In this document: piece after piece, positions 6,999 through 50,980 of the stretch
Numbering within the stretch: the stretch's first letter is position 1
How the letters are laid out: every line of letters begins with the position of its first letter
Assembly: GCA_963716745.1 (NCBI GenBank)
Contig: OY970320.1
Span: forward strand, 800,001-864,000
Direction: 5' to 3'
Length of the DNA: 64,000 nt
From: an uncultured Gemmatimonadaceae bacterium
Lineage (GTDB): Bacteria; Gemmatimonadota; Gemmatimonadetes; Gemmatimonadales; Gemmatimonadaceae
Notes under the pieces: model-generated
Told to the model about the DNA's origin: nothing
Database searches by the model: none
Seen by the model: the letters and a program-made list of their open reading frames with translations, nothing else
Translations under genes and position numbers: made by a program

Positions 6999-9900
6999 TC
7001 AGCATGTAGAGGTTCGCTCAGCATGTCGCGCCAATCTGCACATAAGATTGACCTGCCTCATCTCATCAACGCCCCTACATCGCCCTGCCATAAGCCCCGG
7101 TGATCCGAGCACCCCCGCTACCGCCTTCGCCCTACTCACCGCCACATTCATTCTGTTCGCACTCAGCAAGAACTCCGCCCCTCGAGGCGAGTCCTCGAGC
7201 GTCGATGAACACATCGACACGATGACCACCGGCGCCTCCTGACCCTGGAACTTGTCCACGGATCCCACTCGCACCGCCGGGTCCATCCGCCCGCGCAGAT
7301 TCCGCACCTGCATGTTGAACGGCGCAACGACTAATACGTCTTCCGTGGTCATTGCGCGAGCGGGTTTGTTTTCCACGGTCACGCTGCGCGCGAGCAGCTC
7401 CTTGACGAGCGGCACGATCGCGTCGGCCTCCTCGTCGCTGCTCTGGCTGTTTCCTTCGTGTTCCACCGGCATCCACACGATGCCGTGCTGGGTTCCAACG
7501 GCGTTCCCCTCGGTGCGCGTCGCGCTCTTGAGGCGGCCCTCATAAAATGCATCCGATATGAACGCGCACACGTCCGGGTGCATGCGGTAGCTCAGCCCCA
7601 GGAAGATCCCGAAGTCCGGCGGGATGGTCGCGTGACCGTTCAGCGCGTACTCCAGACAACTCATGCCGCTCTCGCCGGGGTGGGTGCCCTTGAGCGGCTG
7701 CGCGAGCTGCATCTGGTCGCCGATGAGCACGATGTTCTTCGCGCTCTGGCCCATCGCCACGGCGTTCGCGAGGCTCACCTGCCCCGCTTCGTCGATGAAC
7801 AGGTAGTCGAGCGAGCCAACGAGCGCTTCGCGGCTGAACAGCCACGCGGTGCCGCCGAGTACCCACGGCCCGGGGGTGCCGGCCAACTGGTCGGCGTCGC
7901 CGGACGCGGCGAGGTGGGTGATCCGCTCGTGAAGCTCTACGGTCTCGTCGCCGTCGCTGCCCACCTTGTAGAGCGCCGCGTTCCCGGGCGGGGCCGGATC
8001 GTTCTTCAGGATCGCGGCCATCACGTTGAGCACCACCTTGTGGCTGTTGGCGGCGATACCGACGCGCTTTCCGCGACGGAGCAGCTCGACGATCATGCTT
8101 GAAGCGGTGTAGGTCTTTCCAGTTCCTGGGGGGCCTTGAATGCAAAGTGTGCTGCCATCGAGTCTACAGACGATATCGATGGCGTCGCGTAGGAAGTTGG
8201 GACCGTCCTCAACGAGTGCTCCACCATCGTGGCCCTCTATCCGCGGCTTCCGGCGGAAGAGGAGATCATCAATGGCGGTGCATCGTTCATCGTGCGTCGT
8301 GCATTGTTGGGCGAACCGCACGAGGGATTCCTTGATCGGCTTCGCGCTCAGGTAGTCGTCGGGGATCAGGCTCAGGCGATCGGGGAGTTGCTTGTTCTTC
8401 GACAGCTTGAGCTCGAGCAGGCCGGCGTCCGCATCCAAGGTCACGATGCTGCACTTCGTGCGCCATTGGTCGGTCACGACCACCTTACAACCGGCGTGCA
8501 GCTTGGTATCGCTGTTGGGATCGAACGAGTATTCGTGCGCCAATGACTGTTTCTCGGGACGCGCCGCCTTCTTTGTGCGCACGAGGCCCGTGAGACAATC
8601 GAAATCTTCGCGCAGCTGCTCCTCGGTCTTCTCCAAACGGTCGAAATACTGCCACCACACCGGCTTCTCCTCGCGGCGGTGGTACTCCACGAGCCAGCCG
8701 ACGAGCGCGGTCACGCGCGCACGTTCTGGATCCTCTTCCTCCTCAGCCATCTCGGCGAGCTTGGCCGCAACCACGGCGCCCGGATCAGGCTCGCGCGGCG
8801 GACGGTCATCATCAGCGCCGGCAGGCTCAGTCGCCACCGGCGGCGCCGGATATTTCGCATCGAACTCCGCCTTCCGGTCCATGAGCCAGTCGCGCACGCC
8901 CACGGTGCTCTCGCAGTCCACGCGATTGTACTCGCGGATCTCGTTCAACCGCGCGCTCCCCGCCCAGCCCTGCGGCTCGCCGCTGTCGATCCACGCCTGG
9001 TAGGCCAGCACGGAATCGCCGGCGTTGGACACAGCCTGCTCGCGCGGCGGCATGTAGAGGCACTCGATGTCCTTCAGCGAATAACCGGTGGCCCCGATCG
9101 TCACGCCCTGACGCACGATGTTGTACAGGTCCACCAGCACTTCATTGCGCAGCAGATCGTCCACCTCGTTCTCGCGCGTGGCGTACTTGCCCATCAAACG
9201 GCGCAGCGCCGTTTTCTCGTACGCGGCGTAATGGTACACGTGCATCTCGGGATCCTGCTGCCAGCGCGCGTGCGCGAAATCGACGAAGCCCTCGAAGGCT
9301 TTTTTCTCCTGCTCGGGCGAATGCGCCCACCAGTCGTGGAATTTCGGTTTCCCGTCTTCGACAGTGACGGCGCCGAAGAGATACTCGAGGCCGCCGGGAT
9401 AGAACGGGAATCCTTCCATGTCGAAGAACACGTCCAGCGGCCGAGGCGGCGGCAGCAGCGCGAGCCCGCGCCCGGGGTCGTTGGGCGAGGGCGGGCGCAA
9501 TTCGAAGAGCGGTTTGTCGAGCTCGCGCGATGCCTGCTGCAGCGCCGCCTGCCGGCGGAGCTTCGTGAGCGTTTCGGGAGAGATTCGGGGAATGCCTACT
9601 ATTGTACTGTCGGCGAAGTCTTTGAGCGTGGTGATGCCCGCATCCTCGAGCCGGCGGATCTGCGTGCGCGTGATATTCGCGACGCGACTGAGATGGTCGC
9701 GCTCTTCCAGCAGCTGCTCGGCGAACGTGCTCCACTGGCCATAGCTGCGCTCGAGCCCGGGGTCGGGCATGTTGTCGCGGCGCCAATTCTTCTGGAACAC
9801 CAGGAACGCGTCGCGCTGCACCAGATAGTAGAAATAGAAATCGTCCGTCTTGAACGACTCTTCCGTGCTGTCGCCGAAGATGAACTTGATCTGCTTGGGC

Positions 9901-10415
9901 CGAACCCCCTGCATGGCCTCGAGCATGCCGGCGTAGCAGCAGAGCTGCACGATGAAGGCCGGCTTCGCCGAGCGCGCGAGTTTGACGTCGCGGGGCTCGT
10001 AGTGGTAGTCGCCGAGTTTCGAGGGGCCGGGGATTTTGTACAGGAGATCCGGATAGCCCTGCCAGTCGCCGTCGGTGAGGCAAGCTTGGTAGATCACATT
10101 CGCACCAGCGTGCATGGCGTCCAGCGTGTGGCGCGCGGCATGCTCGTCGTTGCGATCGATCTCCACGAGGTCCGGGATCTCGGCGCGCAGTTTGGCGAGG
10201 TGCCGCTTCTCGTGCTCATCGCCCATGCGCGCGGCGAGATCATCGCCGCCTTCGCGGACGTCGGGGGCGATCGAGATGCCGGCGGGGATTCCGGGAACGG
10301 CCGCGGCGCCGCCCTCGAACTTGGACCGCTCACACCAAGCCGAAAAATCGCCTTCGAGGAAAGCGAGAAGGTCCTTTGGCGAGAACTGCGTGCGGCCGTC
10401 GGGGAGTTTCTTCAC
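6999..10415 (-). CDS. TM0106-family RecB-like nuclease + RNase H-like + UPF1-like SF1 helicase
   Basis: GYPDLL..DVKLAR..QLCCY; FFDMEG..YNRVDC; QGPPGTGKT, FIDEAGQ, GDQMQL, SVDKFQGQE, NVAVSRA. Confidence 0.93.
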   Translation of the reverse strand: MKKLPDGRTQFSPKDLLAFLEGDFSAWCERSKFEGGAAAVPGIPAGISIAPDVREGGDDLAARMGDEHEKRHLAKLRAEIPDLVEIDRNDEHAARHTLDAMHAGANVIYQACLTDGDWQGYPDLLYKIPGPSKLGDYHYEPRDVKLARSAKPAFIVQLCCYAGMLEAMQGVRPKQIKFIFGDSTEESFKTDDFYFYYLVQRDAFLVFQKNWRRDNMPDPGLERSYGQWSTFAEQLLEERDHLSRVANITRTQIRRLEDAGITTLKDFADSTIVGIPRISPETLTKLRRQAALQQASRELDKPLFELRPPSPNDPGRGLALLPPPRPLDVFFDMEGFPFYPGGLEYLFGAVTVEDGKPKFHDWWAHSPEQEKKAFEGFVDFAHARWQQDPEMHVYHYAAYEKTALRRLMGKYATRENEVDDLLRNEVLVDLYNIVRQGVTIGATGYSLKDIECLYMPPREQAVSNAGDSVLAYQAWIDSGEPQGWAGSARLNEIREYNRVDCESTVGVRDWLMDRKAEFDAKYPAPPVATEPAGADDDRPPREPDPGAVVAAKLAEMAEEEEDPERARVTALVGWLVEYHRREEKPVWWQYFDRLEKTEEQLREDFDCLTGLVRTKKAARPEKQSLAHEYSFDPNSDTKLHAGCKVVVTDQWRTKCSIVTLDADAGLLELKLSKNKQLPDRLSLIPDDYLSAKPIKESLVRFAQQCTTHDERCTAIDDLLFRRKPRIEGHDGGALVEDGPNFLRDAIDIVCRLDGSTLCIQGPPGTGKTYTASSMIVELLRRGKRVGIAANSHKVVLNVMAAILKNDPAPPGNAALYKVGSDGDETVELHERITHLAASGDADQLAGTPGPWVLGGTAWLFSREALVGSLDYLFIDEAGQVSLANAVAMGQSAKNIVLIGDQMQLAQPLKGTHPGESGMSCLEYALNGHATIPPDFGIFLGLSYRMHPDVCAFISDAFYEGRLKSATRTEGNAVGTQHGIVWMPVEHEGNSQSSDEEADAIVPLVKELLARSVTVENKPARAMTTEDVLVVAPFNMQVRNLRGRMDPAVRVGSVDKFQGQEAPVVIVSMCSSTLEDSPRGAEFLLSANRMNVAVSRAKAVAGVLGSPGLMAGRCRGVDEMRQVNLMCRLARHAERTSTC

Positions 10416-11104
10416 TCGGATACGTCGTCCTCGCCATAAGGCCGCGGCTCAATGCGAACCCCCAGCTTGAGGAGGTCGCACGTCCACTGAAAGCAAGTGA
10501 CAGCGACAGGTGAGGAAAATACCTGCGTGTCGTCCGCCATTGGGCTGTCGAGGAGTCCGATGAACCCGACCTCCTCTCCGCTATCGGGATCGAGCCACGG
10601 CATGTACGGCTCGCATTCAGTCACGGCCGCGCGCGCTATAGCGTACGCGGGATTCAAACGGCGACAGATCGAAAGCACCTGCTCAGGATCGTCGATCTCG
10701 ATGATCTCATCGACGCTCCGCTTTTCACCAAGCCAGCGCTTCAGCACCTTGGCATCTCCCTTCACGGGGCCGCCGTAGATCCTCGCGAATGTTCGTTCCG
10801 TGAGCGCCGAGCCGCCGCGTTGGCTGACGCGATCGCGCAGCGCCTCAGTGGCTGCCTTTCCGAGCACGCGCTCCATTCGATCAATGTGCGCGCCCTCATT
10901 TCCGTCCGCGAGTTCCTCGCGCAGCCATTGGAGCATGCGGCCGCGTGTAAGCCGGGCGATCTCCATATCCGGGGCACTGAGGCGGTACTCGGCGCCCTCT
11001 TCGAGGTATGTGGCGGTCACGAAACTGTCGGACTTCTTCGCGGCCGTGAGTCTGCGGAGGAGCGGGCGCGCGTGCTCGTCGGCGTACGCGATCGCCTCAC
11101 GCAT
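10412..11104 (-). CDS. Hypothetical protein translationally coupled to the TM0106 gene
   Basis: 230-aa ORF with GTGA stop/start overlap at 10412-10415. Confidence 0.6.
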   Translation of the reverse strand: MREAIAYADEHARPLLRRLTAAKKSDSFVTATYLEEGAEYRLSAPDMEIARLTRGRMLQWLREELADGNEGAHIDRMERVLGKAATEALRDRVSQRGGSALTERTFARIYGGPVKGDAKVLKRWLGEKRSVDEIIEIDDPEQVLSICRRLNPAYAIARAAVTECEPYMPWLDPDSGEEVGFIGLLDSPMADDTQVFSSPVAVTCFQWTCDLLKLGVRIEPRPYGEDDVSE

Positions 11105-11179
11105 GCGAGCGGGAGGATGATCGGGGGCTCATAGTTCCACGGGCGAAACGTCTGCTCGTTCAAAGGCGCCTTCCGAAGA

Positions 11180-11374
11180 TCATGTGCCGTACGCCTCCCG
11201 CGGCGGCACGAGCCGCAAGATCGGCGCACCACAGAAAGTCTCCACCAGATTGTTCTCGGCGCGCGGAGGCGTCGGAACTTTCAGGTAGAACTTCTGCGGG
11301 CAGTAGGTCGGCTCCCGCCCGTTCACGTAGCGGCGGCCGCACTTTGGGCACTCCCACGAGAAGCGGTTCGACAT
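11180..11374 (-). CDS. Stand-alone 4-Cys (Zn-ribbon-like) small protein
   Basis: SWECPKCGRRYVNGREPTYC..CGAPIL, homologous to the N-termini of the next two genes. Confidence 0.75.
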   Translation of the reverse strand: MSNRFSWECPKCGRRYVNGREPTYCPQKFYLKVPTPPRAENNLVETFCGAPILRLVPPREAYGT

Positions 11375-11380
11375 GCAAGG

Positions 11381-11402
11381 AATCTGCACCCTGGGTCTGA
11401 CA
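11381..11402 (-). promoter_or_regulatory. PafBC-like promoter TGTC-N12-CAGATT, leaderless
   Basis: Minus strand TGTC AGACCCAGGGTG CAGATT CCTTGC ATG(11374). Confidence 0.6.
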
Positions 11403-11457
11403 GTGGTGAGGTCTCGGCAATTGCTGCCGCCGGTAGTCGGGAACGCCTAAGTCTGCC

Positions 11458-12136
11458 TCACTCTTCCGTCTGCTCCAGCGCCGCCTTCGGGTCCATTCCT
11501 TCGTAGATCACCTTCATCAGTCGGTCGAACTCCAGAGTCGGCCAGACAGAAGCTCGCGTTGATCACGTTATTGACCATCTGCTCGGTGAGCACGCAGTCG
11601 TCGACATCGATCCCGGTGCGGTAACGCACGAGGCCTTCCTCGAAGTCGAAATCGAAGCCGCCGACGATCGCGGCCCAGTTCGCTCGCGTGACGTACTCCG
11701 CAACGGCCGGCCGCCGCACGGGCGGCACTTTGAGCGCCAGCATCGCGCGCGCAATGACCTGTCGCTCCTCTTCGCGCGCCGTGACAATGACGCGGAGCGT
11801 CGAGTGCCTTCCGTTCAGCGTGAACTCCACGCTCTCATACTCAGGCAAGACCAAATGAGGCCAACCGCGGCCCTGCACCGCGCTGACCGCTATCGCCAAC
11901 AGGGAGCCGTCGGGCGCTGTCCCGCCCCCGCTCGCTTTTTCCTCGAATGGCTCGGCTGGCCGCGCGAGGGGCAGGATCGGCGCGCCGCACCGCGTGGCGA
12001 GCAGCCCGGTGGCAGCGTCGGCCCGCGGATGCGCCGGCGCGTGCAGTGAGAGTTGCTCCTCGCAGTACGTCGGCTCCTCACCGTTCACGTACTTCTTGCC
12101 GCACTTGGGGCACTGCCAGCTGTAGACAGTTTGCAT
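11458..12136 (-). CDS. 4-Cys domain + YbjN-family protein (frameshift near 11535)
   Basis: MQTVYSWQCPKC..; VAEYVTRANW..GGFDFDFEEGLVRYR (YbjN). The alternative frame gives FDRLMKVIYEGMDPKAALEQTEE*, matching the paralogue. Confidence 0.8.
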
Positions 12137-12142
12137 GCTATG

Positions 12143-12163
12143 AGTGTGCAAAGGGTTGCGACA
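12143..12163 (-). promoter_or_regulatory. PafBC-like promoter TGTC-N11-CACACT, leaderless
   Basis: Minus strand TGTC GCAACCCTTTG CACACT CATAGC ATG(12136). Confidence 0.5.
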
Positions 12164-12886
12164 TCACTTCTCCGGCCGCTCCAGAGCCGCCTTCGGCTCC
12201 TCGCCGCCGTAGATCACCTGCATCAAGCGGTCGTGGTAGATGTCCGCCATGTACGAGGTCATCCCGAACAGAGTGTCGACCATCTTCTCGGTGAGCGTGC
12301 CGCCCTCCACATCAATGCCGCAGCGGAAGCGCACACTGCCGTTCTCGAAGTCGAGATCGAAGGCGCCAGTGAAACACCTGTAGTTCACGCGCGCGATGAA
12401 CTCCGCGGCGGCCGGCCGGCGTTCTGGAGGCACCTTGAGCGCCAGATAAGAGGACACGATGACCTGTTGTTCGGGTTCGCGCGCGGTGACGACGACGCGG
12501 ACCGTCGTGCGCTTGCAGGCGAGCGAGAATTCCACTGCAGGGAATTCAGCGTACCGCGCGAAATTCCACTTGCACGCGCGAATGGTGCTGACCACCGTGG
12601 CCATGATCGGACCGTCGGGCGCTCTCTCCTCTTCGCTGATTCTCTCCTCGTTGGGATCGCAGGCGTCAATGCTATCGGACATGTCCGGCGACTCCTCCCG
12701 CGCCGCTTCCGGCGCCTCAAGCGGCAGGATCGGCGCGCCACAGCGCGTCTCCACGAGCCCGCTCTCGTCCGCGAGCGGATGCCCGGGCGTCTTCAGGAAG
12801 AACGACTGCTCGCAGTACGTGGGCTCTTTCCCGTTCACGTATTTCTTGCCGCACTTGGGGCACTGCCAGCTGTAGACGGTTTGCAT
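12164..12886 (-). CDS. 4-Cys domain + YbjN-family protein
   Basis: MQTVYSWQCPKCGKKYVNG..; AAEFIARVNY..GAFDLDFENGSVRFR. Confidence 0.85.
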   Translation of the reverse strand: MQTVYSWQCPKCGKKYVNGKEPTYCEQSFFLKTPGHPLADESGLVETRCGAPILPLEAPEAAREESPDMSDSIDACDPNEERISEEERAPDGPIMATVVSTIRACKWNFARYAEFPAVEFSLACKRTTVRVVVTAREPEQQVIVSSYLALKVPPERRPAAAEFIARVNYRCFTGAFDLDFENGSVRFRCGIDVEGGTLTEKMVDTLFGMTSYMADIYHDRLMQVIYGGEEPKAALERPEK

Positions 12887-12892
12887 GAACTG

Positions 12893-12914
12893 AATGTGCG
12901 AGGGGGGTGTGACA
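12893..12914 (-). promoter_or_regulatory. PafBC-like promoter TGTC-N12-CACATT, leaderless
   Basis: Minus strand TGTC ACACCCCCCTCG CACATT CAGTTC ATG(12886). Confidence 0.6.
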
Positions 12915-13028
12915 TTGAACTACGCGGGAAGCGGGAAGCGCTGCGGGATGCGCCAACTGCGCGAGGGCCCCACGCGCCGTTCATGCTCAACGCGGCGCTT
13001 CCCGCTTCCCGCTTCCCGCGTAGTTCAA
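12915..13028. repeat. Family A palindromic element (GGGAAGC heptamers)
   Basis: TTGAACTACGCGGGAAGCGGGAAGCG...CGCTTCCCGCTTCCCGCGTAGTTCAA. Confidence 0.9.
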
Positions 13029-14173
13029 GAAGCCTGCGCCTGGAATGACCGCCGCAGCGCCTCCTTCGCCCAAGTGATCTGCTGCGCCTTTTCAGTGAAG
13101 AGTTTCTGCAGCCGCGGATCCAGCCCCGCGCGATCCGGATGGCACGCCGCGATTATCGTGCGATATGCGCGCTCGATCTCGCCGTAGCTCGCGGTAGAAG
13201 AAACACCGAGCAGGATGCGCGCCTTCTCGAGATCCTCCCGAATCCGCTGCTGGCGGCGGGCGCGCGGGTCATCCTGATGCTGCTGACTCCCTTTCGCGCG
13301 CGCCTCGTTCGTTCGCGCCTCCCTCCGCGCCTCCTCGGCGCCACTCGTGCCGCGAGCGGCGTAGGCGATCTCCTTGAACAATTCCGTGATGTCATGCCCC
13401 GAGAAGTCGAGCGATTTCGCCACCAGGTGGACGGCCGCGGACATTTCCGCCGTGAGCGGGCCATCGGCGAGCGCGAGATTTCGGATGAGTCGCGCATACG
13501 GCGCGCGCTCGGCTGGCGACAACGAGCACACCGGATAGACAATGGTGCGCTTCACAAAGAGGATCTCGCGGATACGCTTCTCGCTGAGTTTCCCCTTGAA
13601 CGCGTCGCATAGGTAGACGACAGCGATCTCGTGGGCCTTGGGCGCGCAGCATGACTCGGCCCACACCAACGTCGCACAAACGAAGGCCGCAACGTCCAGC
13701 CATGCGCGCTCGCGAGGAACGAGACCGTCGGCGTCGAGCCGAACGGTGTTCGGATCCAGACCGGCCTGGTGGATGAGCGACTCCACGGTCTCCTGGCGAG
13801 CCGGCCGCGACAGCTCCCGGAGATCGCGTACGGCGTAATAGGGCGCCGCAAAGAGGCCGCCAATGCTGCCAAGTCCCGTGAACGCCGCGCGAGCGATGCC
13901 CCTCCTCGATGCGCGTCGCACGCACTTCGAGCAGCCGGCGACGACCCGGGAATCAAGGGAAGTGAACCACCCGCGCCCACGGATCACGCGCAGCACGCGC
14001 GCCTCCTGCATGTGCGCCTTGCCGCAGATGGGACACGGTACGTCGTAGCCGTACAGCGGCGGGGGCGGAGGTGCGGCGCGAGGCGCCGCGTTCCGCGACG
14101 CGGAACTCTCCTTCGCCACGCGGAACATGGCCCGGATGATCATGAATGCGATAACTGCGCCAGCATTACCCAT
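13025..14173 (-). CDS. Membrane protein with Zn finger, TerB-like region and C-terminal J domain (DjlA-like)
   Basis: N-terminal TM; CPIC..CSKC; NLALADGPL; ILLGV..IERAYR..CHPDR. Confidence 0.75.
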   Translation of the reverse strand: MGNAGAVIAFMIIRAMFRVAKESSASRNAAPRAAPPPPPLYGYDVPCPICGKAHMQEARVLRVIRGRGWFTSLDSRVVAGCSKCVRRASRRGIARAAFTGLGSIGGLFAAPYYAVRDLRELSRPARQETVESLIHQAGLDPNTVRLDADGLVPRERAWLDVAAFVCATLVWAESCCAPKAHEIAVVYLCDAFKGKLSEKRIREILFVKRTIVYPVCSLSPAERAPYARLIRNLALADGPLTAEMSAAVHLVAKSLDFSGHDITELFKEIAYAARGTSGAEEARREARTNEARAKGSQQHQDDPRARRQQRIREDLEKARILLGVSSTASYGEIERAYRTIIAACHPDRAGLDPRLQKLFTEKAQQITWAKEALRRSFQAQAS

Positions 14174-14201
14174 GACTTGAGCCTCCCGGATTGTTGATCG
14201 C

Positions 14202-14223
14202 AATCTGGGAGGGGGGTGTGACA
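14202..14223 (-). promoter_or_regulatory. PafBC-like promoter TGTC-N12-CAGATT
   Basis: Minus strand TGTC ACACCCCCCTCC CAGATT, then GGAGG and ATG 14173. Confidence 0.6.
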
Positions 14224-14320
14224 GCCTACTCTCGCCGGCTTCCCGGTGTTCGGTTATTCGCTGCTGACACCGGGATATTGCATATTCTGGCGGCCAACAA
14301 TTCGAGGAATCGCGAAGGGC

Positions 14321-15997
14321 ATGACTGAAAACGATCAGGAAAGCGAAACGGGCCCCGCATGGGAACTCGCACGCGCGCTCAAGTCGTTCGGCGAGGCTGA
14401 TGACTCGTCGGCACTCGAGGAGCTTCGCCCAGCATATGCCGCAGCCGAGGCGGCGACGACCGAGCGCGAGCGCCTCGACGTGCTGATTGCAGTCATTGGT
14501 GCGGCGGAACGCCAGCATATTCGCGGTGATGCCCTGCTCCCTTTCCTCCTCTTCGATGGCTCGCCTTCCGTTATCTCGACCGCCGCGCTCCACTCCGTCC
14601 CCGTGTGGCCGGGTGTCTCCGACGAATCACCGCTCCGCGGCGTCGAGGAGTTGCTTCGCCTCGCCGACATCGCGGTCGAGCAAGGCGACGAACCACGCGC
14701 AGTAGCCATTGTGAGCGGAATGCTCCTGCTGGGGGACCGGCGCGTTGCTCAAGCGCTCCGCAATGTGCAACGTCATTTCACCGCGGCCGGGCAGACACTG
14801 CTCGCACGGCTCGGCGGCGTCGCCGCATATGCAACGGTTATCGACTGGCTCATCGACTGGCTTGAAGACTGCGAGCGGAACGAGTTCGGATCGGTCGCCG
14901 GGGCATTGTCTCGTTTCTCGGATCAGGCGAGGAAGGACGGTGTGATCGAAACGAGACGTGCATTGCCCATCTGGTCGCGTCCGCTGGAGGAGGCATCGAT
15001 ACACGTCGGCGAGTGGACTTTCGAGGAGTTCGCGAAGCGCATTCGGCCGCGCCTCCTGCAGATCGCCGCCGATGAAGCCGCACCCCGCATCATGCACAAT
15101 GTGCTCAAGGCCTGGGGCATTTCGCACACGAATCGCTGGGTGACCGGCATCCATCGCCGGCCGGCTGTGAGCGACGCATCGCAGCGGCCCCTGTTGCCAC
15201 AACTGCCACCCGGGACATCCACGGGAGAATTATTCGAACCCATCGAGCTCAAGGATGCGGATTTCGTCGCGCGCGACGGCACGATCCTGATCGGCTGGGC
15301 GATCTTCAATCCCAACGGCCCGACGTTCAGTTGTGTCGGCCTACTGCCGACGGAGGACCCCGAAGTCGATCTGCTATTCTACCGCATGCTCAACCCATTC
15401 ATGCAGAGCTCGTGCACGTTCGCGGCGTTGCGTGGCAGCGAGCGCGACTCTGGCGAGATGCTCGAGCGACTTCTCGCTCCGTTGTTCGGCCGGAATCACA
15501 TTGGCGCTGAGAACTGGAGCTACCCGTTGTTCGGCGGCCTCCCCACCGTCGCCTTCGTCGTCGGCAGCGACGAGGCAAGAGACGCGATTGCAGGCTGGTT
15601 CTGGAGCAACGTCGCACTCGCGGAGGAAGACTTCGTGACGGCCTCCTGGCGGATGCGAGCATTTCCGCTAAGTCCCTGGGAGCGCGTGGGGGCCGAGCGC
15701 GACGAGGCATTGGCTTCGATGACCGATGATGGCCTTCTCGCGATCCCCCGCACCGGTGGCCCGGCGACGCCGGAGGAGTTCACCGACTGGTGGAGTCTCG
15801 TCACATCGGCGGACACCCTCTACTCGGAGTTCTACTGTATTCCTGGCGCGTGGTTTGGAGCGATCGACCATGCGCCGGGCGCGTTGGGGGCCAGCGACGA
15901 CTATACGTTCTGGCAGCTTGATGATTTCGTGGCGCGTTACGGGGTGACGTTGTTCCGGAACTTGGCAGCGACAGCGGACGGCGAGGCAGACTCTTAG
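14321..15997 (+). CDS. Hypothetical protein (helical N-terminal half)
   Basis: Long ORF with ATG after GAAGGG; no motif recognised. Confidence 0.7.
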   Translation: MTENDQESETGPAWELARALKSFGEADDSSALEELRPAYAAAEAATTERERLDVLIAVIGAAERQHIRGDALLPFLLFDGSPSVISTAALHSVPVWPGVSDESPLRGVEELLRLADIAVEQGDEPRAVAIVSGMLLLGDRRVAQALRNVQRHFTAAGQTLLARLGGVAAYATVIDWLIDWLEDCERNEFGSVAGALSRFSDQARKDGVIETRRALPIWSRPLEEASIHVGEWTFEEFAKRIRPRLLQIAADEAAPRIMHNVLKAWGISHTNRWVTGIHRRPAVSDASQRPLLPQLPPGTSTGELFEPIELKDADFVARDGTILIGWAIFNPNGPTFSCVGLLPTEDPEVDLLFYRMLNPFMQSSCTFAALRGSERDSGEMLERLLAPLFGRNHIGAENWSYPLFGGLPTVAFVVGSDEARDAIAGWFWSNVALAEEDFVTASWRMRAFPLSPWERVGAERDEALASMTDDGLLAIPRTGGPATPEEFTDWWSLVTSADTLYSEFYCIPGAWFGAIDHAPGALGASDDYTFWQLDDFVARYGVTLFRNLAATADGEADS

Positions 15998-16061
15998 CGA
16001 GGGTCAGAGGCTTCGAGCGGCGCCATCTGCGAACCGAACGAGAATCCTCGTCAGGCCGCGC

Positions 16062-16091
16062 TTGACGATGATATATACCTATCTGTATACT
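16062..16091 (+). promoter_or_regulatory. Sigma70-type promoter with overlapping TATAC-N6-GTATA inverted repeat
   Basis: TTGACG(16062)-N18-TATACT(16086); IR at 16074-16089. Confidence 0.5.
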
Positions 16092-16117
16092 GCGGGCACC
16101 ATGGTCTCGAGGCGCCA

Positions 16118-16516
16118 ATGGCACTGAAGGTAACGCACGGCAGCGGCAACATCTTCGTTGATGTCGGCTTTTCGCGGCCGCAGGCCGCGGTCATGCTGCT
16201 GCGCTTTGAGCTTGCGCTCGCGATTGAACAAATCATACAGTCTCGCGGATTGACGCAAGTACGCGCCGCCAGGCTGTTCGGCGTGAGTCAGCCCCGCGTC
16301 AGCAATGTGGTGCGCGGCAAGATCGATCGCTTCAGCATCGACACTCTGGTCGAAATGATCGGTCGCGCAGGAGCGCACGTCACGATCTCGGTGTGGCGGA
16401 CGCGGAGATTGCGCGTGACGATTCTGCCGCGCAGAACACCGCCTCGAGTGCGCGAGATGACTGAACTGCGCGGGAAGGGGGGCGCGGGACGCGCCCCGCG
16501 TACTAAGGAGCGCTGA
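16118..16516 (+). CDS. XRE/HTH_37 HigA-like antitoxin or regulator (orphan)
   Basis: GSGNIFVDVGF..GLTQVRAARLFGVSQPRVSNVVRGKIDRFSIDTL. Confidence 0.85.
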   Translation: MALKVTHGSGNIFVDVGFSRPQAAVMLLRFELALAIEQIIQSRGLTQVRAARLFGVSQPRVSNVVRGKIDRFSIDTLVEMIGRAGAHVTISVWRTRRLRVTILPRRTPPRVREMTELRGKGGAGRAPRTKER

Positions 16517-17464
16517 TCTCCCTCAGCCTCTTCGCGATCTCCCGGCGCACGGACTCCGGCTCCAGCACCACCGCATCCACGCCGTATTGAAGCACATGCC
16601 TCACAGCCCACCGCGCGTCCGCCAACGGATGCTCCATAATAAGCGAGCCGTCTCTTGCGAGCGGCAGCCCCTCTCGCTCCGCGATCCACCGCGCGATCTT
16701 CGCGCTGTAGCGCACCTTTAGCGTTTCGGGCTCCTCGGCGTGGAAGATCTTGCCGCCAGCGGCGATCGCGTCGAGTGAGAACTCAACTGGCACCTCGTAC
16801 GGCTCGTTGGTGGGAGACGCGCTCTCGATGCGGTCGAGCCGGAAGATCCTAATGGACGCACGCTCATAACAATGCGCGACGATATACCACGCCCCGTTCG
16901 CGGCGATTAGGCCATAAGGACCGATCAGGCGGGCTTTTGATTCCGTCGCGTCGGCACTGCGATACATGATCTTCACCTTCTTGTGCGCCCGCATCGCGCC
17001 GCGAACGGCGGCGAGATGACCGCCGTCGCCGGCGCCGCCGAGCTCGGCGTGGCGGCCCGCGTTCGAAAGCTCGCTCTGAGCGGCAATTTGCCCAGTGCCT
17101 GGCGCAATCGTTTGCGCGCCCCGTCTATTGCGCGATGCTGATTGGGTGGCCGTTCGCGCCGCAACATCGCCAGTCCAAGATCCAGCGCGCAAAGTTCCGG
17201 TGCGGTGAGACGCATGGGCCGGGCGAAATGACTGGCCCGCATCTGCACGCTTTCGGTTGAGCTCTCGATGAGCACGTGCAGGCCGGGGACGAATCCGCCG
17301 GGGTCGCCGAATCGCTCGCTGAGCGAATAGAGGTCGCCGAGTATCGTGTCCACGTCCGTGCCGGCGAGCTTGGCGACTCTCGTGAGTTGATGCGCTTTGC
17401 CGTCGGCCAGGCGCGGGATGAGCTGCAGCAGCCGCCGGAGCTGGACGGACGCCTCTTCGCTCAT
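16503..17464 (-). CDS. PafC-like wHTH-WYL-WCX regulator (frameshift near 17060)
   Basis: MSEEASVQLRRLLQLIPRL..FARPMRLTAPE; RLIGPYGL..WYIVAHC..FRLDRI; VLQYGVDAVVLEP. Confidence 0.85.
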
Positions 17465-18590
17465 CGCGCGCCCTCCATGGCGGCGAGCGTCTCGCGCGCG
17501 AGCGATACGGAATTTCGCGACGAACGGCTTCGGTTCCACCGGCACGGCGTCGCCGCCGAACGACAGCAACCAGCGCGCGAAGTGATCGGGCCGCCGCACA
17601 TGGAACACGCGCTTCCCCGCTCCGCCGCGCACCGGCGTGCCCAGCTTCGCCGCGGCGCGCACGGCGCCGGTATCGCCGCGGAAATCGACGGTCACCTGGA
17701 TCTCTTCTTCGTCGCCGAGATTCCATGACTCGCGCGAACGGCTCTCGGCGGCAAGGTCGAATGTGGAGGGGATCGCGTAGTCCGCGCTGCCGGCGCGCTT
17801 CTTGTTCACTTCCACGCTCGACATTCGGCTCAGCCGGAAATTGCGCATCTCCTCCTTGCCGCGGTCGCGCGCGACCAAGTACCAATGCGCGCCGAGGAAC
17901 ACGAGGCCGTACGGTTCCGCCTCGCGCGCGGCCGATTTGCCCGTTTGCATCGTGAGGTAGTTGAACGTCACGATCTTCTTGTCCAGCAGCGCGGCGCCGA
18001 GTTTCGCGAACACTTTCGCGTCCACGCGCTCGGCGACAACGTGCTCGCCGCTCCCAGCGGGCTGCGTGGCGTCCACCGGGAGATCGAACGCGAGTTTTCG
18101 CATGGCGCTCTCGGCGTCTGCGCCGAGCATGGGATCGCCGAGCGATCGCGACGCGGGCGGCGGCGCTGCCGACGGCCTCGAGCTCATCGGGCTCGAACGC
18201 GAGCGTCGCGAGCGAGCGATAGCCCGGGGGTCCGATGCGCGGGCGCGCGGAGTGCCCGCTCGCGACTACTTGAATGAAGGGGAGATAGAAATCGTCGTGG
18301 CGCAGGCGGTAGGCGTCCTTCTCATCTTCGCCTTTGCCTTTGATCGTCTCGATCGCGACGCCGAAGGCGCGCAACTCATCCTTGTCGCGCTCGAACATTC
18401 GCTCGAGCGTCGCGGCGTTGGCGCCGGCGCCGTAGCCGGGAACATCCCGTCGCAGTTCGGCAAAGGACACCGGCATTCGATGCGCCAGCAGCGCGGCAAG
18501 GAGATCGATCCAGCGTTGCAGCTTGGGCGTGCGCTCGGCTCCGCGGGTCGCGGCCTTCTTCTTGGCAGGCGGCTTCTTGCGTGGAGGCAT
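17461..18590 (-). CDS. PafB-like wHTH-WYL-WCX regulator (frameshifts near 18150 and 17490)
   Basis: KLQRWIDLLAALL..ERMFERDKDELRAFG (PafB-type signature); EPYGL..HWYLVARD..FRLSRM; WLLSFGG; ATGA overlap with the next gene. Confidence 0.85.
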
Positions 18591-18599
18591 GGTTCGCAG

Positions 18600-18628
18600 A
18601 GTGTGCCCCATCGTGGGGGTGAACGCAA
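18600..18628 (-). promoter_or_regulatory. Housekeeping-type promoter of the pafBC-like operon
   Basis: TTGCGT-N17-CACACT, 9 nt before ATG 18590. Confidence 0.45.
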
Positions 18629-18658
18629 GGAGGCGCGATGAGCACGAGCTTGCTTAGT

Positions 18659-18765
18659 GCGCGGGAAGCGGGAAGCGGGAATCGCCGCGGGATGCGTGAA
18701 CAGCGCGAGGGGCCATCGCGCCCTTCTCGCATCCCGCGGCGCGTCCCGCTTCCCGCGTCCCGCGC
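18659..18765. repeat. Family A palindromic element
   Basis: GCGCGGGAAGCGGGAAGCGGGAATCGCCGCGGGATGCG...CGCATCCCGCGGCG..CCCGCGC. Confidence 0.9.
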
Positions 18766-18774
18766 CTGAAGTAG

Positions 18775-19258
18775 CTAGTGGTTCAGGATGAACGTCGTTG
18801 GATACGACAACACGACCGAACTGCAATTCGCAGCATAGACGTCCACTGGCCCCGTGATGGTCATGCGCTGGTTGGCCGTGTCGTAAGTGCCGGAGAATGT
18901 CTCCGAGAAACTCGGACACAGATCCTGAGTGCACGGTGATATTGACCGAGGGATTCGTTCCCGCGGCGATGTTTCCCGCGAGCGTCCCGGTGCCGGAGAT
19001 GGCGACCGTGTTGACGCCATCCGTAAGCTCTCCCGTGAGTGCGTAACTACCACTCAGCGTCGGGCCATTCTGTCCGACCGTCACCGTGAATTCCGCGATG
19101 ATGGCCACGCCCTGGTCCACGCCGGACATTGGCCCGCTGTACGAACCCGAAACGTCGTTGTAACTCGGCGGCGGAGCCGTGGTGCCCCCGCCTCCGCCGC
19201 TGCATGCGGACGCGAGGATGACGAGGAACGGAACGAAAGCTGCTGTTCTGACGCGCAT
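18775..19258 (-). CDS. Putative lipoprotein (frameshift near 18925)
   Basis: Lipobox ILASAC; beta-rich body that continues in the 18775..19053 frame. Confidence 0.7.
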
Positions 19259-19290
19259 GATTCCCTCTCGAGTGTGAAGCGTGAGAGGGA

Positions 19291-19312
19291 ATCATTGAGC
19301 GGGGGTGTGACA
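19291..19312 (-). promoter_or_regulatory. PafBC-like promoter TGTC-N12-AATGAT
   Basis: Minus strand TGTC ACACCCCCGCTC AATGAT upstream of ATG 19258. Confidence 0.45.
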
Positions 19313-19319
19313 CTCATTG

Positions 19320-19428
19320 AACGACGCGGGAAGCGGGAAGCGGGAAGCGCCGCGGGATGCGAGAAATGCGCGCTGGCCCCTCGCGCCCTACTCGCATCCC
19401 GCGGCGCTTCCCGCTTCCCGCTTCCCGA
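19320..19428. repeat. Family A palindromic element
   Basis: (GGGAAGC)3..GCCGCGGGATGCGAG...CTCGCATCCCGCGGC..(GCTTCCC)3. Confidence 0.9.
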
Positions 19429-19472
19429 GCCCTCCCCCCGGCTTGACCCGACTGGCACACGGAGCGGAACAC

Positions 19473-20173
19473 TCACGATGGATCCGAGTAGTCCGCCACT
19501 AAGGGGCAATGATCACTCAGCGCGCGCCAATCCCGATAGGCGCCGACGCGCACGCGAGCCGGCCGCCCCCAGTCGCGCGGCACGAAGCAGATAATCGATG
19601 TGATACGGCCGATGCTCGTGATGATAGAAATAGTGCGTGTGCCGGGTCTCTTTCCCGTGCTTCTCGCGAAAGTACGTGTGATATGCGCTCGCGAGTCCGT
19701 GCGCCGCGAGCTTCTCGATGAGATCGCCCTGACTCTGCCCCGGCGGATGCTCGGCGTCCCAGATCACGTTCGCGTTGAAATCGCCGAGCACCACAGAGTG
19801 CTCGTGCTGCGCGATCACGGGGCCATAGAGCTCGATCGCGCGATTGAGTCCGCGCACGTAGCGGAACTTGCGCTCGAAATTAGTGGTCCACACCGCGAGC
19901 ATGAGGAACGACCGCGGCCCCGAGACTCGCACCGGCACCGTCCACCGCGGCACGCTCGGCCGCTTCCGCACCGGCGCGAACTCGTAGCCGTTCCGCGCGA
20001 TGACGGTGATCCCCTTCTTCTTCGGATCGCCGCCGTACCAGCGGTACGTCGCGCTGTCGGGCGCCTCGCGACGCAGCTCTTGCAGCACGGCAATGTCGGG
20101 CTGCAATGCCTCGACTGCTGCAGCGCTTCTCGGCTGAACGGCCGAATGAGCAATTCCAGGTGAGGAGACGCAT
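19473..20173 (-). CDS. Endonuclease/exonuclease/phosphatase (EEP) family protein (frameshifted)
   Basis: MRLLTWNC, PDIAVLQE, LGDFN, HIDY and SDHCP motifs spread across three frames. Confidence 0.85.
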
Positions 20174-20179
20174 TCCCTA

Positions 20180-20290
20180 AACTACGCGGGAAGCGGGAAT
20201 CGGGACTCGCCGCGGGATGTGCGGGAAGCGATCGTGGAGCAACGCGCAGTTCTCGCATCCCGCGGCGAGTCCCGCGTCCCGCGTCCCGAA
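20180..20290. repeat. Family A palindromic element
   Basis: AACTACGCGGGAAGCGGGAATCGGGACTCGCCGCGGGAT...ATCCCGCGGCGAGTCCCG. Confidence 0.9.
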
Positions 20291-20833: not shown

Positions 20834-20943
20834 GTTCGGGATTCGGGACTCGGGACTCGCCGCGGGATTCGGGATGCGCCATGGGCTCACCGCGCCTTTC
20901 TCGCTTCCCGCGGCGAGTCCCGAGTCCCGAGTCCCGCGTAGTT
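20834..20943. repeat. Family A palindromic element (GGGACTC heptamers)
   Basis: GGGATTCGGGACTCGGGACTCGCCGCGGGA...CCCGCGGCGAGTCCCGAGTCCCGAGTCCCGCGTAGTT. Confidence 0.9.
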
Positions 20944-23120: not shown

Positions 23121-23226
23121 GGCGCGGGACTCGGGGCTCGGGACTCGCCGCGGGATTCGGGAACTGCGCGATGATCCCCTCGCCTCTCGAATCCCGCGGC
23201 GAGTCCCGAGCCCCGAGTCCCGCGTC
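23121..23226. repeat. Family A palindromic element
   Basis: Near-perfect IR with GGGACTC/GGGGCTC units. Confidence 0.9.
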
Positions 23227-49605: not shown

Positions 49606-50177
49606 AGGTCCAAATGCCTCATGAGTTGCCGTCGCGCCCGCCACAATTGTGCGCGCGATGTGCCGGCCGCCGTGCCGGTGAGCGTCGCGATCTCGTCGTG
49701 CGAATAGCCCTGCATGTCGTGCAGCACGAACACCACGCGGGCGCCCTCGGGGAGCCGCGCGAGCGCGGCCTCGAGATCCAGCCGCGAATCCACATCGTCG
49801 CCCGGCAATGGAGAGCGCTCGATCGCCTCGTCGCTGTCGGGGATCCAACGATCTTCCTGCCGCCCGCCGGCGCGAAAGCGGTTGAGGATCACGTTCACAC
49901 CCAGTCAATGCAGCCAGGTGGAGAATGCGCTGTGGCCCTTGAAACTGCCGAGCTGTTCCCACGCGCGCACGAAGATATCCTGCACCAATTCCGGCACCTG
50001 CCCCGGATCGCGCGCCATGCGCCGCGCAAGCGCGGTGACCGCCGGCGCGTGGGCGCGGTACAGACGCTCGAAGGCCGCGACATCGCCGCCGTGTGCGCGC
50101 CGCACGAGCTCGTCGTCCGGGAGCAGATCGGCGACGGTCACCGATCGCTCACGGAGCGGCGAGGTGCGCGCGCGCAT
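49602..50177 (-). CDS. ECF sigma factor (frameshift near 49905)
   Basis: GDVAAFERLY..ELVQDIFVRAW..SAFSTWLH; FVLHDMQGYSHDEIA..SRAQLWRAR. Confidence 0.9.
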
Positions 50178-50698: not shown

Positions 50699-50980
50699 AA
50701 CTGCTTACGGCCACTTCGCTACCAGGGCGCTTACGGCTGCAGTCAACAGCAAACAGTCACGAGTAACGGCCAGTCGACAGTCAACAGTCACAGGTCACAG
50801 AGCACGGTGCGGTGCGCCAGCGCGGGTCTCGCGATGCCGATTCGGCATCGCAGAACCGGCGTACGCGCAGTTTCACAAGTTTTCTGTGACCTGTTGACTG
50901 TTGACTGTAGACTGGCGGTCACTCGTGACTGTTTGCTGTTGACTGCAATTCTAAGCGCACTGGTGATGCAGTGAGTAGTT
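50699..50980. repeat. Family B palindromic element with extended arms
   Basis: AACTGC..ACCAGGGCGCTTA..CTGCAGT...TAAGCGCACTGGTGATG..GTAGTT. Confidence 0.9.

Follow-up and report, generated by a model that had tools for sequence, protein, structure and literature searches.

A probable PafBC-type activator pair and its local promoters in the phylum Gemmatimonadota

A stretch of 64,000 nucleotides from an uncultured soil bacterium of the Gemmatimonadaceae (GCA_963716745.1, contig OY970320.1, positions 800,001 to 864,000 of the forward strand), called the window here in its full length, carries two adjacent genes for WYL-domain regulators, and around them five minus-strand sites in which a TGTC-containing element precedes a -10 hexamer. 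The pair is probably a heterodimeric WYL activator of the PafB/PafC type, with the five sites as the promoters that depend on it. PafBC has been described as an actinobacterial regulator within the widespread HTH-WYL-WCX class (PMC6789036, PMC8635444, PMC11804915, PMC7617703, PMC10693628, PMC12392091), and in 2025 PafBC and its '-26 element' promoters were still called an actinobacterial DNA-damage system (PMC12392091). A search of one library of papers found no paper containing both 'PafBC' and 'Gemmatimonad', nor any with 'outside Actinobacteria' plus PafBC or sigma adaptation. The observations are best explained by a system of the PafBC type, in a phylum new to it, that has a defined promoter element and controls a small and variable set of genes near the regulator.

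All five sites (numbered as in Table 1) have the form TGTC(A/G)(C/G)A(A/C)CC, followed by 5-6 nt and (C/A)AnnnT. A preliminary description, made from the letters of this DNA alone, had listed them as five promoters of which three lie exactly 6 nt before an ATG; every one is present in the sequence where it was placed, and the three are sites 1-3, but only three of the five can be counted as independent occurrences in the window, because sites 1-3 precede tandem paralogues that have a common promoter and first ~60 codons, site 2 being a paralogous copy of site 3. The motif itself needed to be narrowed. The loose pattern TGTC-N12-MANNNT is at chance level in the window (8 found against 8.06 expected), whereas the extended 10-mer TGTCRSAMCC occurs 6 times against 0.87 expected, a count that none of 100 shuffles reached. 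When the five sites are made into a two-block matrix, the same five come back as ranks 1-5 of the whole genome (G000; 3,292,296 bases in one contig, 67% G+C, 89.8% complete), at 21.9-29.0 bits with the next match at 17.4; site 2 has 21.9 bits including its gap penalty, and site 5 has 23.2. A foreign matrix, based on 46 sites that all come from other genomes, the near-identical relative being excluded, gives 27.6 bits for site 3, 27.2 for site 4 and 21.8 for site 1, against a reversed-genome maximum of 18.4; its spacing is fixed, and site 2, with its 11-nt gap, is unscored. Four sites in the genome exceed that control, namely sites 1, 3 and 4 and one at position 3185256. Site 5 is the weakest of the five, and small lipoproteins orthologous to the one behind it have canonical sites in other genomes. 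Sites 3 and 4 are identical in G002, the comparison genome of the same genus, and the spacer of site 5 differs by 1 nt between the two genomes. Assembly indels are frequent, as described below, and hence both this difference and the 11-nt gap of site 2 may be artefacts.

The only other above-control site in the genome (G000:C1:3185256; L174 2257-2278, plus strand; TGTCACACTCCTTTGATAGCGT, 21.8 bits) stands in an AT-richer intergenic stretch, ~450 nt before an open reading frame (ORF) for a LuxR-type response regulator, and may be functional or a chance match. At site 4 (14202-14173), complementarity is seen between the C-rich spacer CCCCTCCC and the Shine-Dalgarno region (GGGAGG) of the gene behind it, and likewise at the VWA genes of loci L057, L146, L150 and L161; the spacer should lie outside the transcript made from this promoter.

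It is hardly credible that the sites resemble one another only through local duplication, or through the palindromic repeats that adjoin them, and play no regulatory part. Duplication has indeed occurred, in that sites 1-3 are paralogous copies, and sites 3 and 5 directly follow a ~100-bp repeat; yet this repeat is found at ~53 places in the genome, against 4 occurrences of TGTCACACCC, the flanks of site 4 are unrelated, and in genomes whose PafB/PafC proteins have only 30-55% identity to those of the window the motif precedes unrelated genes, with unconserved flanks and a fixed spacing. A repeat-derived artefact was rejected on the respective counts of repeat and element, and on the recurrence of the element in 80 pafC loci.

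These 80 loci (1,009,066 bases) were collected by a profile search with a 5-row PafC alignment, which keeps close relatives only and is silent on other phyla; 79/80 are labelled Gemmatimonadota/Gemmatimonadales/Gemmatimonadaceae and 1/80 Bacillota. Applied to 20 fetched pafC loci, the matrix from the window found sites of the same form in most. Across all 80, TGTCASAC-N8-YAnnnT has 48 matches, spread over 38 loci, where the reversed control has 1, and other spacings are almost absent (N6 0, N7 1, N9 2, N10 1). Alignment of the 48 sites shows a C-rich spacer, the two positions after TGTCASAC being C in 43/48 and 38/48, and neither a -35 nor a TGn, as those columns are at background. Co-occurrence of motif and regulator was also seen in 201 Gemmatimonadota genomes, 56 of which have HTH_PafC. 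In DNA chosen without regard to pafC, the strict 22-mer has 86 matches against 13 for the reversed pattern, and it is found in 34/56 genomes with HTH_PafC (62 matches) against 21/145 without (24 matches). Leaving out genome G086, which is flagged as unpublished and has 3 matches, gives 83 in total and 20/144 genomes without HTH_PafC, and no conclusion depends on it; the genomes are kin rather than independent, and counts are given instead of a probability. Where a match lies on the same contig as pafC, it is within 20 kb of that gene in 29 cases out of 32.

The arrangement of these sites equals that of a known class of promoter. The mycobacterial in vivo consensus is reported as tGTCgg(N10)tA(N3)T, 22 nt in length and without a -35, with PafB contacting -23 to -28 (PMC8635444). 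The phylum consensus, TGTCAS(N10)YA(N3)T, has the same 22-nt geometry, such that the likeness to mycobacteria suspected from the window alone recurs beside the pair across the phylum. The GTC-containing element starts 16 nt upstream of the -10, and the site is non-palindromic. In genes predicted to be leaderless, the ATG starts 7 nt downstream of the hexamer's final T; with its A taken as +1, the hexamer spans -12 to -7 and TGTCAS spans -28 to -23, as in mycobacteria. Such genes recur among the predicted targets, each of which was defined as the longest same-strand ORF with third-position G+C (GC3) >=0.72 starting <=300 nt from a site. A first set of 85 sites gave 73 ORFs (12 sites had none) and a second set of 40 sites gave 28 (12 had none), with no site common to the two. 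In the first set, 8/73 ORFs start 4-7 nt past the hexamer (exactly 6 nt in 5 cases) and 47/73 start at 21-80 nt; in the second, 5/28 start at 4-7 nt, including genes for RecC, an AddB-like protein and Cas4-Cas1.

Alternative sigma factors provide another way of reading a two-block site. Were these the promoters of an extracytoplasmic function (ECF)-type or other alternative sigma factor, with TGTCACA as the -35, the WYL pair would be a mere neighbour. The preliminary description had itself listed such a sigma factor as a possible refutation, and the genome does hold ~20 sigma-70-family genes (22 matches). This reading is very unlikely, as the -10 follows the TGTCAS hexamer after only 10 nt and is of the housekeeping form YAnnnT. 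The spacing between -35 and -10 used by sigma factors is usually far longer than 10 nt, being ~15-17 nt for ECF and alternative sigma factors. Additionally, the nearest sigma gene (49860-50063) is ~30 kb away, with an upstream region lacking the two-block motif, whereas the motif tracks pafC across genomes and stays close to it on shared contigs. The ECF-sigma reading was rejected on spacing and co-occurrence. That sigma gene, which is of ECF type and on the minus strand, has one internal TGA; the small gene preceding it has TGTCACATAC upstream without a -10 at the right distance (50740-50960), and the region contains another family of short tandem or palindromic repeats.

The regulator pair accounts for the only two WYL domains in the whole genome. 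As the preliminary description had proposed, the two genes form a coupled pair, the stop of the pafB-like gene overlapping the pafC-like ATG (ATGA); both products have an HTH-WYL-WCX architecture, the second with HTH_PafC, and their own mycobacterial counterparts are closest. NCBIfam has no model matching either member. The N-terminal piece of the PafB-like protein finds the PafB chains of Mycobacterium smegmatis at the top (9fnd_X 6.7e-12, 7p5x_AY 1.1e-11). A PafB-like profile of 14 rows, comprising 12 Gemmatimonadota proteins of related loci and the two pieces from the window, matches M. smegmatis PafB at 7.7e-45 against 3.9e-14 for PafC, and a profile of five PafC-like proteins matches PafC at 1.1e-26 against 2.6e-16 for PafB. 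On the fused protein of A. aurescens (6SJ9), the PafC-like profile gives 110 bits in the PafC half and 50 bits in the PafB half. The next WYL structures, DriD, CapW, BrxR and others, match the profiles of the pair at 1e-17 or worse. These sequence comparisons identify the two proteins as orthologues of actinobacterial PafB and PafC respectively, each being closest to its own counterpart. In a protein atlas, which offers a lead only, clusters from Gemmatimonadota came first and an Actinomycetota PafC cluster next.

Both the order of the genes and the residues that matter to PafBC are retained. A pafB-like gene stands directly before the pafC-like gene in 19/20 fetched phylum loci, with 30-60% protein identity to the window, and the twentieth (L054) has only a 103-aa C-terminal pafB remnant at this place. 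One ORF spans the pafB-like and pafC-like parts in 2/20 loci (L050 3085-5313, plus strand; L051 9229-12168, minus strand), which may reflect a frame error, one record perhaps being a long-read assembly. The R-M-F-E-R of the window aligns on R46 and R50 of M. smegmatis PafB, positions at least 90% conserved over the 14-row alignment, and these two residues are reported to read two guanines of the GTC triplet (PMC8635444). Most of the residues to which PMC11804915 assigns contacts with single-stranded DNA (ssDNA) are also kept, namely R181, Y196 (of the WYL motif), R211 and R214 of PafB, and R201 and R204 of PafC; they include WYL arginines of both proteins.

From the orthology, the conserved residues and the promoter geometry, we infer a mechanism of the mycobacterial kind. 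Each promoter would combine a housekeeping-type -10 (YAnnnT) with no -35, the GTC element (~-28 to -23) standing in its place. On the mycobacterial model, the dimer would be activated when ssDNA binds in its WYL/WCX tunnel, the HTH of PafB would then read GTC, and the dimer would replace the contact of sigma region 4 with a -35, in what is termed sigma adaptation. The same pair might instead bind TGTC as an ordinary regulator, either a class-II-type activator touching sigma region 4 or a repressor like BrxR and CapW. The position of the site alone cannot separate these modes, but the element lies in the spacer at the mycobacterial -26 position with no -35 or extended -10, hence a repressor model would be left without a promoter able to fire unaided. 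Other WYL regulators are reported to repress defence genes (PMC12392091), and some of the targets here are Cas and conflict-system-like genes; against this, PafB and PafC are matched at ~1e-45 to 1e-27 and BrxR and CapW at 1e-5 to 1e-7, and a heterodimer would be expected to use a non-palindromic site such as this. The ordinary-regulator alternative is accordingly improbable, if less so than the sigma-factor one.

Under a PafB/PafC-type activator, the regulon in this genome would be small and would adjoin the regulator, consisting of a lipoprotein, a DjlA-like J-domain protein, two 4-Cys/YbjN proteins and a short 4-Cys protein. The short 4-Cys transcript probably continues into the TM0106 nuclease-helicase, which is probably the last gene of the site 1 operon. 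Such read-through had been suggested in the preliminary description; homologues of the nuclease-helicase have a motif of their own in L058, L110 and L207, but in this genome the operon is predicted from gene spacing only.

Across the phylum, the same type of promoter is predicted to drive genes for DNA-end processing, for CRISPR adaptation and for proteins of the VWA and YbjN-like kinds; pafBC itself is frequently among them. In the first plus the second set of sites respectively, the predicted targets include PafB-like proteins (7+3), VWA proteins (8+2), AddB-like PD-(D/E)XK proteins of ~1080 aa with PDDEXK_1 (6+2), TM0106 helicase-nucleases (2+1), RecC (1+1), YbjN or TY-Chap3 proteins (3+1) and ARPP-1 (1+2). 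There are also DUF2779 (6), RmuC (2), an RNase_T exonuclease (1), an ADP-ribosylglycohydrolase (1), HD_4 (1), Cas4-Cas1 (1, plus one cut-off Cas4-like ORF) and Cas GSU0053 (1), with small lipoproteins like that of the window (4, plus singletons), Ig-like (Big_1/Big_2) lipoproteins (4, second set) and PEGA lipoproteins (3, first set). The theme of these predicted targets is DNA-end processing together with defence-like and envelope proteins, with frequent predicted self-activation. The balance tips slightly towards a wider reading, in which ssDNA-sensing orthologues of PafB and PafC would reprogramme the housekeeping RNA polymerase of Gemmatimonadota without a Pup-proteasome context, and a compact, local, often self-activating regulon would couple double-strand-break processing (AddB-like, RecC, TM0106 helicase-nuclease, DUF2779, RmuC) to CRISPR adaptation and conflict-system-like modules (VWA, ARPP-1, YbjN / TY-Chap).

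The Cas genes deserve a separate comment. In genome G170, a Cas4-Cas1 fusion gene (L186 928-2628, minus strand) is predicted to be leaderless, 6 nt past the hexamer of a canonical site, and a Cas GSU0053 gene (L187 2039-3301, minus strand) also stands behind one. This arrangement suggests that CRISPR adaptation in G170 is induced by damage or by ssDNA.

Several observations weigh against the PafBC-type interpretation, and they concern the regulator, the sites and the regulon in turn. Firstly, the pair has three frame-breaking insertions in this assembly, and the regulator would be dead here if they were real. At R204 and R208, two other ssDNA residues of PafB, arginine is not found throughout the phylum. 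No Pup ligase (PF03136) was found in this genome at its 89.8% completeness, meaning that the actinobacterial genomic context is missing; the link to the pafA/Pup-proteasome locus has been used to identify PafBC orthologues in Actinobacteria (PMC6789036), and is treated here as actinobacterial context rather than as part of the transcription mechanism. Secondly, sites 1-3 are paralogous copies of one another, and the foreign matrix gives site 5 only 16.4 bits, under the control maximum of 18.4. The strict 22-mer also occurs in 21/145 genomes without detected HTH_PafC; one of these, G180, has a pafB-like gene behind its site, hence the class without HTH_PafC contains false negatives. Thirdly, the target calls are crude, in that 12/85 sites of the first set have no ORF and 15/73 ORFs lie more than 80 nt away. 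A search for sequencing runs of this organism found no RNA run (3 DNA runs, 0.05-0.07 of sampled words). Finally, recA and lexA are present in this genome, and a scan with the foreign matrix found no motif before either; there is only one further above-control site beyond the locus in the entire genome. Hence the regulon differs from that of mycobacteria (~150 genes) in not being a global response to DNA damage. The pair of the window has no motif site of its own in this genome, and the ordinary -35/-10 promoter once attributed to it was not recovered, as a consensus scan of the minus strand from 10300 to 19600 found no sigma-70-like promoter, the pair included; for the PafBC-type interpretation this last result counts in favour.

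The frameshifts are probably errors of assembly rather than signs of decay. Compared with G002, the pafB-like gene has +1 nt at 18149 and +1 nt at 17505, and the pafC-like gene +2 nt at 17077, while G002 has insertions of its own at other positions. The essential rpoC (G000:C1:2764247-2768286, outside the window) is likewise broken, into at least 6 frame pieces; therefore indels are a property of this assembly, which has many frame-breaking errors, and the frameshifts in the pair are read in the same way. The lipoprotein gene has a frame change near 18920, beside GGATC, which is at the same place in G000 and G002, and may be a common systematic base-calling error or a real lesion.

The locus as a whole is laid out on the minus strand, from 19800 to 11000, as an Exo_endo_phos-like gene, a ~100-bp repeat, site 5 with the lipoprotein gene, a second repeat, the coupled pair of WYL genes, 2.27 kb that hold two genes on the plus strand, site 4 with the J-domain gene, a third repeat, site 3 with a 4-Cys/YbjN gene, site 2 with the second copy of that gene, and finally site 1, followed by the 64-aa 4-Cys gene, the 230-aa gene and the 1138-aa nuclease-helicase (Table 1).

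Table 1. Promoter sites, genes and a representative repeat of the locus, in window coordinates
Feature	Coordinates	Strand	Sequence, family matches and remarks
Site 1	11402-11381	-	TGTCAGACCCAGGGTGCAGATT; TGTCAGACCCAGGGTG-CAGATT; 6 nt then ATG
Site 2	12163-12143	-	TGTCGCAACCCTTTGCACACT; TGTCGCAACCCTTTG-CACACT; 11-nt gap; 6 nt then ATG
Site 3	12914-12893	-	TGTCACACCCCCCTCGCACATT; TGTCACACCCCCCTCG-CACATT; 6 nt then ATG, predicted leaderless
Site 4	14223-14202	-	TGTCACACCCCCCTCCCAGATT; TGTCACACCCCCCTCC-CAGATT; 28 nt before J-domain ATG
Site 5	19312-19291	-	TGTCACACCCCCGCTCAATGAT; TGTCACACCCCCGCTC-AATGAT; 32 nt before lipoprotein ATG
Small lipoprotein gene	18775..19258	-	no Pfam family; intact 162-aa homologue (L051) aligns in two frames
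pafB-like gene, HTH-WYL-WCX	17461..18611	-	ATG at 18611 or 18590; Pfam WYL and WCX
pafC-like gene, HTH_PafC-WYL-WCX	16503..17464	-	Pfam HTH_PafC, WYL and WCX
DjlA-like membrane protein gene, C-terminal J domain	13025..14173	-	Pfam DnaJ 7.1e-07
4-Cys zinc-ribbon and YbjN gene, copy 1	12164..12886	-	Pfam YbjN 8.9e-10
4-Cys and YbjN gene, copy 2	11458..12136	-	Pfam YbjN; 55% identity to copy 1; frame change near 11535
Short 4-Cys gene, 64 aa	11180..11374	-	third partial zinc-ribbon copy, 62% identity over residues 3-63
230-aa protein gene between short 4-Cys and helicase genes	10412..11104	-	no family found
TM0106-family RecB-like nuclease fused to SF1 (IGHMBP2/Upf1-like) helicase	6999..10415	-	Pfam RNase_H_2, AAA_11, AAA_12
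Palindromic repeat, ~100 bp	12924..13025	.	between J-domain gene and site 3

The C-terminal half of the J-domain protein matches the NCBIfam DjlA model at 2.5e-15, under the family cut-off, and the nuclease-helicase matches TIGR03491 (TM0106 RecB-like nuclease) at 1.4e-67. The 230-aa protein has no family in Pfam, NCBIfam or PADLOC, and its gene is probably in one operon with the short 4-Cys and helicase genes, judging by their spacing. PADLOC, run on 12 proteins (7 of the window and 5 of related loci), assigned none of them to a defined defence system, its only matches being generic ones to WYL and helicase. The palindromic repeat (~105 bp) has further copies at 18660-18764, 19320-19427, 20180-20288, 20837-20943, 23123-23225 and elsewhere, with 12 of its genomic places falling in the 64-kb window; these stand between convergent or tandem genes, and are probable insulating terminators. 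The 2.27 kb at 14225-16494 are absent from G002, where one palindromic repeat stands instead. Of the two plus-strand genes in this stretch, one (14321-15997) encodes a product of 558 aa for which Pfam, NCBIfam and PADLOC gave no family, and the other is an XRE/HTH_37 gene (16118-16516), behind the only sigma-70-like promoter match of the region.

This system is similar to actinobacterial PafBC (RecA-NDp / '-26 element' promoters; PDB 6SJ9, 7P5X, 9FND) in its adjacent, coupled and paralogous HTH-WYL-WCX genes, in the retained GTC-reading R46/R50 and WYL arginines, and in its 22-nt non-palindromic GTC-N12-YAnnnT promoter without a -35. In both, helicase-nucleases are among the targets, LexA and RecA coexist with the pair, and single-ORF pairs occur (2/20 loci here, and in some Actinobacteria according to PMC6789036). 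Yet the present pair is found in Gemmatimonadota, with no Pup ligase found and no proteasome-locus context, and its element is TGTCA(C/G)ACCC with a C-rich spacer rather than tGTCgg. Its regulon is small and mostly <=20 kb from the regulator, recA is no target, and the cargo includes VWA, YbjN-like, DjlA-like, lipoprotein and Cas genes.

Other WYL regulators each share part of this pattern. SiwR of M. smegmatis is also a WYL activator of adjacent genes, with a conserved -26 triplet and a local regulon, but is described as an actinobacterial homodimer with a 19-bp imperfect palindrome containing GGA and DinB-superfamily targets (PMC10693628). DriD of Caulobacter and DdaA of Moraxellaceae are reported as ssDNA- or damage-responsive WYL activators outside Actinobacteria (PMC10853764, PMC12392091), and DdaA also drives CRISPR-Cas and restriction genes (PMC12392091); both differ in being single genes, and the DriD chain matches the pair at only ~1e-11 to 1e-16. 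BrxR and CapW likewise adjoin the genes under their control, but they are homodimeric repressors, distant in sequence (1e-5 to 1e-7). The homodimeric regulators DriD, SiwR, BrxR and CapW pair a single gene with a palindromic operator, whereas two genes and a non-palindromic site are found here.

Together, these results suggest that PafBC-type gene control is not confined to Actinobacteria. If this is true, sigma adaptation of the PafBC type also exists in a distant Gram-negative phylum, and would be either older or more transferable than has been thought. The differing element, the C-rich spacer and the missing proteasome link would provide a natural comparison set, which could part the mechanism from its actinobacterial context. 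For around a quarter of the Gemmatimonadota sampled, an SOS-independent response would be predicted, and its targets, several of which have no known function, could be annotated by means of a defined motif.

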